DNA of 64,000 nt from Escherichia phage 24-32N, in the sequence record PV933157.1; one strand, 5' to 3'. Of this stretch, positions 53,095 through 55,398 are shown piece after piece. A model generated the notes under the pieces. That model was not told the origin of the DNA. It did no database searches and worked only from the letters and a program-made list of their open reading frames with translations. Within the stretch, counting starts at the first letter, position 1, and each line of letters opens with the position of its first letter. The position numbers and the translations under genes were made by a program.

Positions 53095-55398
53095 TCAAAT
53101 CACAGGATTAGCACTAATGATAACCCCATCAGTTGCTGAAGTTGGAGCACCTACTTTAGCACGTAAATTACCTGAAGCATCATACCACTCATGGCGATTA
53201 CCTCTCACAGTGTGCTGAATAGACCAAGTTCCACCTAACCCACCATTGTGCCCTGTATTGATAGGGTTGTTGTTTATATAAACATTAAGGTTACCTACTA
53301 TGAAGTTAGTAGCGGAACCTTCAATAAAAGTGGAAGAAGTGAATCTTACAATTACTTGACCAGATACCGAAGGGATAAACGGTAATATTACCCTTTGCCA
53401 CCTGGAGATTGTATCAATAAGAATTATTCTGCGAAGGTACAGAACTGTAGTATCTGTGCTGAGAATCTCAACTTTAACACTCTGTACTGGGTTAGAGCTT
53501 CCGCGTTTTAATTCAAAATCAATGTAGTGTTGCTGCCCAGCTACCATACCAGATACAACAGTAAAGGCTCGCCCACCTGAAGCAAGAGTTATTTCAGAAG
53601 CCTCGTATACACCACCGTAAGAGTTATTAACAGATATTTTAGTAGCATCTGCCACAGTTAACCCACTAGTTGGCCCTGCATACAGAGACACAAAGTTAGA
53701 CTGTTGAGAACCTACCAATGGGGTAGGGACCTGTGGATGCCCGGCGTACCAGTTATTAGTATCCAGAACTTTGAATACATCATTTAGGTTAGAAATTAGC
53801 TTAGGCTCTACACCTTTCTGCAAACCCAAACAAGATTTAGGAGCAAAAATGTTAGTACGAGCCAGATTAGTAATTGATGCTTGGGTTACTAATGGCGAGT
53901 ATTCAGTAATGTGGGATGGCATATCATTGTCATACAAATCACCAACATAGCAGTTACCGACGTTAGGAGTAAATGACCTTATAAAGGGGGCAATATAAGA
54001 ACCATTGGCTGAATTGACGTTATTACCTTCAAAAAGTAAACCAGATACAAATCCAGCACTTAATGTCTCAACATGGGCCTTATCCCCATTGAGGGAGTCT
54101 GTAGCACCCAGGGCAGCAGCATCGGCAATCAGTACATGAGAATCAGGGGATACTAGGTACTCCTGACCAAACTTATTACCTGCAAATCTAATAGCACGCC
54201 CAGAGTTGGTTGCAGTAGCCCCAGGTTCAATCCATACATCATAAGATGCATACTGAACAAATTTTTGCGTATCAGGGTCTATGCCACCACGATTACCGGT
54301 ACGGTAAAAATCATTATCTTCAATATTGTACGGAGTAGCTGGTCCATTAACTACGCTAGTACCTTGGCGACCAATAGCTAATTTAATCCCATAACGTAAA
54401 TCAGAAAATAAATTATCTCTGATATAACCCCCGGCAGATAACCCTGATACGCAAACACCAATAGCTTGGGAATTTAAACCGCCATAAAAGATTGAATCCC
54501 TTACACGAAAATATGGCATATCTATGGAATTATTGCTAATACCGCACTCACTAAAGCGAGATAAGCGTAGATGCTCAAATAGATGAATACCCGCCGTAGT
54601 TCGGGCATCGGATTTCATTCGTACAGCCCCTCGCCCCCCATGAATAGTTAATTTACCTAAATAACTATGTACTGGGTTATTATCCAAATCAAAAAGATAA
54701 GCATCTGAAGTAATAAGGAACTTAGACGAAAGAGCACTTTCACCATGGATATTCATTACAAATGCAGCACCACTTGGAAAAGTTAAACCGGGGCCAGAGT
54801 AAACATACACCCCATTTTCAACTAAACAAGCTGGGCCTTTTTGAAGCATAAAACTGATAGCTGCTTCATCAGTGAGTGCTCCAAATCTTTTGTAGGATGC
54901 ATCATACATGCATTCCCACATATCGTTGATAGCATTGGTATCATCAGCTATACCATTACCGATTGCCCCGAAGTTTTTACGTAAACCTGCCATACCATCC
55001 AGAAGCATTTCTGCTACTGTACGGCTAGGTGTAACACTTGCCCTGCCTTTACGAACTTTAATTGTATCAGCCCCTTTACCTGCATCTTCAGATGCTAAGT
55101 CATTTTTTAACTCTATGACTTTATTAGCCAACACTAATGAGTAAGACCCAGCTGTAGTTGTTATATCCAGCACATTCAGAGTAGCATTGTATAACCACGA
55201 AATAGGAGTACCCGTAGCATTGCCCCTATAAAAAGGCAACTGCGAAACTTCATCATACAGCACAGAGTATGTTTCAACAGGGGTAGATGTGTTTAAAAAC
55301 CCTACCTGTGCTGTTTTTATTCCAAGCAATCTCGCTATAGTTTGCTTGTTAGTCTGTTTAGCCACTGGGCCAGTAGGCTGTGTAAACATCTTATTCAT
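53095..55398 (-). CDS. Tailspike / tail fibre with pectate-lyase-like right-handed beta-helix (putative depolymerase)
   Basis: NFGAIGNGIADDTNAIN resembles the N-terminal pectate_lyase_3 motif; start set at the internal Met at 55398 with GAGG upstream, because the track start at 55455 lies beyond the hairpin at 55429-55446. Confidence 0.5.
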   Translation of the reverse strand: MNKMFTQPTGPVAKQTNKQTIARLLGIKTAQVGFLNTSTPVETYSVLYDEVSQLPFYRGNATGTPISWLYNATLNVLDITTTAGSYSLVLANKVIELKNDLASEDAGKGADTIKVRKGRASVTPSRTVAEMLLDGMAGLRKNFGAIGNGIADDTNAINDMWECMYDASYKRFGALTDEAAISFMLQKGPACLVENGVYVYSGPGLTFPSGAAFVMNIHGESALSSKFLITSDAYLFDLDNNPVHSYLGKLTIHGGRGAVRMKSDARTTAGIHLFEHLRLSRFSECGISNNSIDMPYFRVRDSIFYGGLNSQAIGVCVSGLSAGGYIRDNLFSDLRYGIKLAIGRQGTSVVNGPATPYNIEDNDFYRTGNRGGIDPDTQKFVQYASYDVWIEPGATATNSGRAIRFAGNKFGQEYLVSPDSHVLIADAAALGATDSLNGDKAHVETLSAGFVSGLLFEGNNVNSANGSYIAPFIRSFTPNVGNCYVGDLYDNDMPSHITEYSPLVTQASITNLARTNIFAPKSCLGLQKGVEPKLISNLNDVFKVLDTNNWYAGHPQVPTPLVGSQQSNFVSLYAGPTSGLTVADATKISVNNSYGGVYEASEITLASGGRAFTVVSGMVAGQQHYIDFELKRGSSNPVQSVKVEILSTDTTVLYLRRIILIDTISRWQRVILPFIPSVSGQVIVRFTSSTFIEGSATNFIVGNLNVYINNNPINTGHNGGLGGTWSIQHTVRGNRHEWYDASGNLRAKVGAPTSATDGVIISANPVI

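Follow-up and report, generated by a model that had tools for sequence, protein, structure and literature searches.

A predicted beta-helix branch tailspike of the N4-like Escherichia phage 24-32N and its probable docking on an upstream gp66-like tailspike

Where does a tailspike gene on the minus strand of Escherichia phage 24-32N begin, how is its product held on the virion, and what does that product do at the host surface? The gene lies in the 64,000-nucleotide (nt) stretch of record PV933157.1 analyzed here (the window), an N4-like genome of the genus Gamaleyavirus (G7C/IME11-like Schitoviridae). An earlier note, made from the letters alone, had described the product as a tailspike with a pectate-lyase-like beta-helix. 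Our analysis suggests, with a probability of roughly 0.8 for this reading as a whole, that the product is a distal ("branch") tailspike, which takes the position and role that gp63.1 has in phage G7C and carries a beta-helix depolymerase body. Feature coordinates are collected in Table 1.

The mechanical open reading frame (ORF; 53095..55455) spans 786 amino acids (aa) from an ATG at 55455 and contains an in-frame internal ATG at 55398. Along the coding strand, an upstream TGA stop (55485-55483) is followed by ATG 55455, a GC-rich hairpin, a GAGGA Shine-Dalgarno sequence, a 7-nt spacer, and ATG 55398. Public records and IMG/VR contigs supplied the corresponding junction for 12 distinct relatives, IME11 included. 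All 13 junctions carry GAGG, followed by A in nine and by G in four. An in-frame TAA or TGA stands one codon before the ATG in 8 of the 12 distinct relatives (..GAG GNN TAA CCC ATG), which closes the extension in AN24P2, BaqKoxi, KP2025, IME11, and the loci L007, L008, L012, and L013. In about 50 database proteins that share just the N-terminal domain, residue 1 aligns to residue 1 of the 767-aa form, which begins (M)NKMFTQPTGPVAK, and the solved CBA120 TSP1 (MNEMFSQ...), TSP3, B2 gp48, and G7C gp63.1 align in the same way. The equivalent ATG is also used in the deposited annotation of BaqKoxi. Met4 was ruled out as a start, as relatives read MNKT.. or MNKV.. there.

Translation almost certainly starts at ATG 55398 and yields 767 aa, given the good Shine-Dalgarno sequence at optimal spacing, the hairpin inside the extension, the stops in relatives, the residue-1 alignments, and the BaqKoxi annotation. 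The earlier note had judged the called start too far upstream, preferring the Met at 55398 for its GAGG site and placing a GC hairpin within the ORF as called; the hairpin is present at 55429-55446, and the five lines of evidence agree on the later start. Initiation at ATG 55455 would add the sequence MSKTPLRRGILKLQHEDYP to the protein. The frame is indeed open from there in the window, and KP8, alone among the relatives, likewise offers a further start codon in frame (TTG, 20 codons upstream). Yet inspection of the coding-strand sequence found no Shine-Dalgarno sequence ahead of ATG 55455, ribosomes would have to pass a hairpin of -13.8 kcal/mol to read the extension, eight relatives are closed by a stop at this point, and relatives share MNK(M/T/V)FTQP from residue 1 onward but no protein sequence in the extension. 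Together these observations make the 786-aa form very improbable.

The N-terminal domain links the 767-aa protein to a known docking system. A phmmer search of the Protein Data Bank (PDB) matched it to 5w6f (E = 4.5e-5), 9d84 (7.2e-5), 4oj5 (2.4e-4), and 4qnl (4.8e-4), with alignments starting at residues 1-3, and residues 1-97 match 14 PHROG tail families. In G7C, gp66 binds the particle and bears gp63.1 on a T4 gp10-like domain, and the N-terminus of gp63.1 is of a type also present in CBA120 TSP1 (PMC6872550). The gene directly upstream in the window encodes a gp66-like protein, whose N-terminus is homologous to the virion-binding region of Moo19 tailspike gp82 (9d80; E = 7e-42; residues 1-198). 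Other segments match CBA120 TSP4-N (7rej at residues 125-201; 7rej and 7xy1 segments within residues 125-237) and PF18668, the TSP1/Gp66 N-terminal domain (residues 259-313; E = 2.7e-12). We take the TSP4-N-like segment to be the T4 gp10-like branching module. Because of the homology to G7C gp63.1 and gp66, the 767-aa protein is best interpreted as a branch spike docked on its upstream neighbor. The C-terminal part of the gp66-like protein resembles a solved tailspike depolymerase (PDB 24qj; E = 4e-14; residues 396-756), and the phage probably carries two independent polysaccharide specificities.

The remainder of the protein was modeled with AlphaFold2 as a monomer from 42 homologs (mean predicted local distance difference test score [pLDDT], 83.5; predicted template modeling score, 0.75). 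The linker is disordered in the model over residues ~100-130 (pLDDT 38-59, and below 50 at residues 110-125). The right-handed parallel beta-helix predicted behind it is secure as a fold. A Foldseek search of the PDB placed at its top ranks, with a probability of 1.00, K2-2 TSP, Depo32, DpK2, CBA120 TSP1-4, and the Sf6 and HK620 tailspikes. The model and Foldseek thus bear out the beta-helix tailspike of the earlier note, which had named the absence of a beta-helix prediction as the result that would speak against it. In the C-terminal domain, DSSP assigns strands over residues 581-762, and Foldseek matches the carbohydrate-binding module CBM4 1gui (TM-score 0.60), 2c26, and 3nru.

The start of the beta-helix carries the only segment of the body that searches of known families recognize. 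A family profile run against the PDB meets beta-helix enzymes at FGAIGNGIADDTNAIN, namely, beta-1,3-glucanase 5m5z (E = 4e-4), the pectin-lyase-like 7b7a and 8ikx, and mannuronan epimerase 8xfq. This is precisely the sequence singled out beforehand as resembling a beta-helix signature, and the resemblance exceeds chance; its placement "near the N-terminus" is loosely true, the motif lying 143 residues in. PF12708 (Pect-lyase_RHGA_epim) is weakly matched by 21 of the 42 homologs (best E, 3.5e-5), and at its N-cap consensus, GAxGDGxxDDTxA, the 767-aa protein reads GAIGNGIADDTNA. The protein itself has no Pfam match at E ≤ 0.1, and the body, searched against Pfam, NCBIfam, and PDB sequences, matched no family outside the cap motif, so that no enzyme class is assigned. 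Six acidic residues (D293, D363, D387, E413, D419, and D439) are invariant in 38 family members at 47 to 93% identity, D387 being gapped in two, and a 30%-identical outlier retains D293, D363, E413, D419, and D439. Their conservation makes all six candidate catalytic or ligand-binding residues.

We hypothesize that the protein translated from ATG 55398 assembles into a spike, presumably trimeric, and that residues 1-95 would dock this spike onto the T4 gp10-like module of the gp66-like tailspike, which would itself be anchored to the phage tail. The beta-helix and the C-terminal beta-sandwich would bind a host surface polysaccharide, either capsule or O-antigen, of a Klebsiella/Raoultella/E. 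coli-type host. The beta-helix would most likely cleave this polysaccharide, allowing the virion to reach the outer membrane.

The structural neighbors of the protein are a mix of hydrolases, lyases, epimerases, and one adhesin, and they bear on what the beta-helix might do. Glycoside-hydrolase chemistry appears somewhat more likely than lyase chemistry. A polysaccharide lyase, acting by beta-elimination on a uronic-acid-containing capsule, would make the body pectate-lyase-like in the literal sense; lyases do occur among the neighbors, and the earlier label holds for the fold, but no pectate-lyase family (PL1, PL3, or PL9; marked by a Ca2+-binding Asp cluster and a catalytic Arg/Lys) was matched and the label fails at the level of family. 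We regard the lyase as unlikely, albeit a serious contender. A purely adhesive, noncatalytic receptor-binding beta-helix would accord with the single adhesin among the neighbors. Against it, the top Foldseek matches are all enzymes, many charged residues on the rungs of the groove are invariant across 38 family members at 47 to 60% identity, and nearly all characterized phage beta-helix tailspikes are enzymes. An adhesin is therefore improbable, more so than a lyase, and a beta-helix depolymerase is the reading that we retain.

The body of this tailspike belongs to a widespread family. From residue ~81-126 onward, it recurs at 48 to 60% identity in about 50 proteins encoded by genomes of Klebsiella, Raoultella, and E. 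coli, where it sits behind unrelated N-termini (a P22 head-binding domain, a T7 tail-fiber N-terminus, a tail-collar N-terminus, and PF18668). It is also found in the Raoultella kagunavirus RP180, T7-like Koku phages, the 252-kb phage YC1, E. coli TH49 and TH50, and "Acinetobacter" phage LAPP1. The docking domain, in turn, is found ahead of many kinds of body. Relative to IME11, the first ~400 nt of the gene are merely 65 to 85% identical, while identity is ~100% from nt ~450 on, so the jump falls at the linker and cap. Such patterns, together with the IME11 identity jump, are typical of domain shuffling among tailspikes. No solved structure or reported activity for the body family was found in the sources searched, and the literature on RP180-like kagunaviruses held no characterization of the homologous spike. 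The LAPP1 spike body (MN923124.1, locus L016), at 61% identity, is annotated as "putative prophage endo-N-neuraminidase"; this annotation or the host assigned to LAPP1 looks doubtful.

Table 1. Features of the tailspike locus and its surroundings in the window (residue numbers refer to the 767-aa form)
Feature	Position	Strand	Basis
Tailspike coding sequence, 767 aa + stop	53095..55398	minus	Stop codon 53095-53097, ATG at 55398
N-terminal docking domain, residues 1-95, G7C gp63.1/CBA120 TSP1-TSP3 type	55114..55398	minus	PDB matches, PHROG
Small mixed domain	residues 17-95	minus	Model, pLDDT 70-91
Predicted flexible linker and module junction, residues ~96-135	54994..55113	minus	Model disorder, homology and identity breaks
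Predicted right-handed parallel beta-helix, residues ~136-545	53764..54993	minus	Model: cap helices, long stack of short strands, pLDDT mostly above 90
FGAIGNGIADDTNAIN, beta-helix N-terminal cap motif, residues 143-158	54925..54972	minus	Profile and Pfam matches at motif
Predicted C-terminal beta-sandwich, residues ~575-767, carbohydrate-binding-module-like	53098..53676	minus	pLDDT mostly above 85
Shine-Dalgarno GAGGA	55406..55410	minus	7 nt upstream of ATG 55398
Leader AAAACTACAACATGAGG, 17 nt	55407..55423	minus	Identical wherever a tailspike N-terminus of this type was found
GC-rich hairpin between both tailspike genes, terminator-like	55429..55446	minus	Fold and conservation at 13 junctions
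Upstream extension, 19 codons, almost certainly spurious (noncoding intergenic RNA)	55399..55455	minus	Junction comparison with relatives
gp66-like primary tailspike, 760 aa, directly upstream	55483..57765	minus	Pfam and PDB matches
Companion ORF, 84 aa	52833..53087	minus	ATG 53087, 7 nt past tailspike stop
Virion RNA polymerase ORF, 3456 aa	28786-39156	minus	N4-like genome

The hairpin ahead of the gene reads A-CCCCGC-TTCG-GCGGGG-U (55446-55429), then AUUUU, and the coding strand between it and GAGGA reads AUUUUAAAACUACAACAU. RNAfold places a 7-bp hairpin in the minimum free energy structure, and the 101-nt region has a z-score of -4.19, with none of 200 dinucleotide shuffles as stable. A stable stem-loop is found at 13 of 13 distinct junctions; save for L009 (gap, ~13 nt), it stops within a few nucleotides of the leader, and 10 of the 13 rank in the most stable ~6% of local 44-nt segments. 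Ten different stem sequences occur among the 13 junctions; one is common to the window, AN24P2, and L013, and that of BaqKoxi differs from it just by a compensatory G-C to A-U change. The structure of the hairpin is conserved, while its sequence is not.

By the criteria for a rho-independent terminator, the stem is good, but the tail is UAUUUU or AUUUU, with four U in the window after the A-U closing pair and often two or three in relatives. A terminator scan passed over the hairpin, the U tract left after the A-U closing pair being too short for it. In a promoter scan, promoter-like sites were no more frequent than in shuffles and no promoter was found for the tailspike gene, and a search of region 55300-55600 against Rfam gave nothing above the gathering score, the best subthreshold match being the terminator end of RsmY. 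The hairpin is terminator-like, and it may serve in termination or attenuation or as a processing or stability site.

The leader is invariant in six independently aligned phages, with the adjacent coding sequence of KP8 ~15% diverged; further contigs came from a search for the leader itself and provide no independent evidence for its invariance. The hairpin and an identical leader precede MNK(M/T/V)FTQP tailspikes in Gamaleyavirus, Kaypoctavirus KP8, and ~145- to 150-kb Klebsiella phages (KP2025 and KP13-26), the junction loci being L001, L003-L013, and L014+L002. The two together may act in regulation or processing or offer a homology arm for recombination.

Downstream, the 84-aa ORF has a Shine-Dalgarno sequence that overlaps the tailspike stop. 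The same ORF directly follows the body homolog in IME11, BaqKoxi, and AN24P2, and homologs do so in LAPP1 (35% identity) and in two prophages (55% identity, 8-nt gap), one of E. coli and one of Klebsiella. No homolog was found after the body in RP180, YC1, Koku, or a P22-like prophage. Where a gamaleyavirus has another body (Mimir124 and KP8), this position holds an unrelated small ORF, and the 84-aa ORF seems, from these distributions, to travel with the tailspike body and not with the backbone. A word-indexed search returned near-identical proteins only; an exhaustive search found 60 cluster representatives at E ≤ 1e-3, nearly all of 82 to 87 aa and none annotated. One 1009-aa match (P0127), to an Ig/Fn3 repeat protein, was set aside because its beta-strands probably matched spuriously. 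The ORF has no family match and is modeled as a five-stranded sheet with a C-terminal helix.

A tentative extension of these observations, possible though on balance doubtful, is that the unit of exchange is a small cassette, with the variable hairpin, AAAACTACAACATGAGG, and the docking codons as its 5′ boundary and a body that often moves with the 84-aa protein. This boundary is 85 to 97% identical in nucleotides across Gamaleyavirus, Kaypoctavirus KP8, and the ~145- to 150-kb Klebsiella phages, and it could serve as a homology arm for tailspike swapping. The 84-aa protein might act in the assembly or specificity of the particular body with which it moves, as one of a family (at least 60 clusters) not described to date.

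Elsewhere, the window encodes a 756-aa portal and an endolysin/spanin cassette, and its backbone is 91 to 95% identical to that of Mimir124 and other G7C-like phages. Two records of relatives merit comment. The origin of the IME11 record (JX880034.1/NC_019423.1) splits the orthologous tailspike gene, which is intact across the origin at its full 2304 nt; its last 474 codons are annotated as IME11_1 (UniProt K4MM73), "hypothetical protein," and its first 293 codons, at the end of the record, are unannotated. The BaqKoxi genome (PQ741797.1) is a 72-kb N4-like sequence of Gamaleyavirus type, which belongs to a podovirus lineage that is not known to be temperate; the published description of BaqKoxi as a temperate myovirus (PMC12981049) looks inconsistent with this sequence.

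Collectively, the locus holds an ordinary, uncharacterized beta-helix tailspike in a known branched-spike architecture, and current understanding of tailspikes is not challenged. The gene model is now fixed at 767 aa, neither 786 aa nor the 474-aa fragment annotated in IME11, and domain boundaries for expressing the putative enzyme are defined, the practical value of which is modest. The beta-helix body, widespread among phages and prophages of Klebsiella, Raoultella, and E. coli, has no characterized relative. Knowledge of its substrate would allow a single capsule or O-antigen specificity to be given to about 50 database proteins from several phage families, which would aid host-range prediction and depolymerase engineering.

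The closest known counterparts are the tailspikes of AN24P2, the Klebsiella oxytoca phage BaqKoxi, and IME11, all uncharacterized, the depolymerase label of BaqKoxi being in silico only. AN24P2 and BaqKoxi are 93 to 94% identical in nucleotides across the whole gene. IME11 is 99.3% identical over the 3′ 62% of the gene, and its docking domain shares 76% aa identity (residues 1-100) with that of 24-32N. IME11 has no match to the C-terminal part of the upstream gp66-like gene, and this depolymerase-like part of the 760-aa protein differs from the IME11 (896-aa) and BaqKoxi (984-aa) counterparts. Among solved structures, the Klebsiella depolymerases K2-2 TSP (8IQ5/8IQ9/8IQE), Depo32 (7VYV/7VZ3), and DpK2 (7LZJ) are the best whole-model Foldseek matches (E = 5e-11 to 3e-7). 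They are beta-helix spikes, and the sequence homologs of the 24-32N protein have a Klebsiella/Raoultella host range, but at 8 to 12% identity and a global TM-score of 0.23 to 0.27 a K2 substrate is not assignable. CBA120 TSP1 and TSP3 (4OJ5 and 5W6F/6NW9), from an Ackermannviridae phage, have an N-terminal domain homologous from residue 1, share the architecture of docking domain, beta-helix, and C-terminal domain, and are branch spikes docked on T4 gp10-like domains; their bodies are only ~10 to 14% identical, and their O-antigen specificity is not transferable.

G7C gp63.1 (4QNL), from the same genus, is homologous in its N-terminal segment (residues 1-65 versus 1-66), and both phages encode a gp66-type partner tailspike, although the two genes are adjacent in 24-32N, unlike in G7C. 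The body of gp63.1 is an SGNH esterase that deacetylates O-antigen (PMC6872550). In contrast, the body of the 24-32N protein is a predicted beta-helix, and family searches gave it no SGNH/GDSL match.
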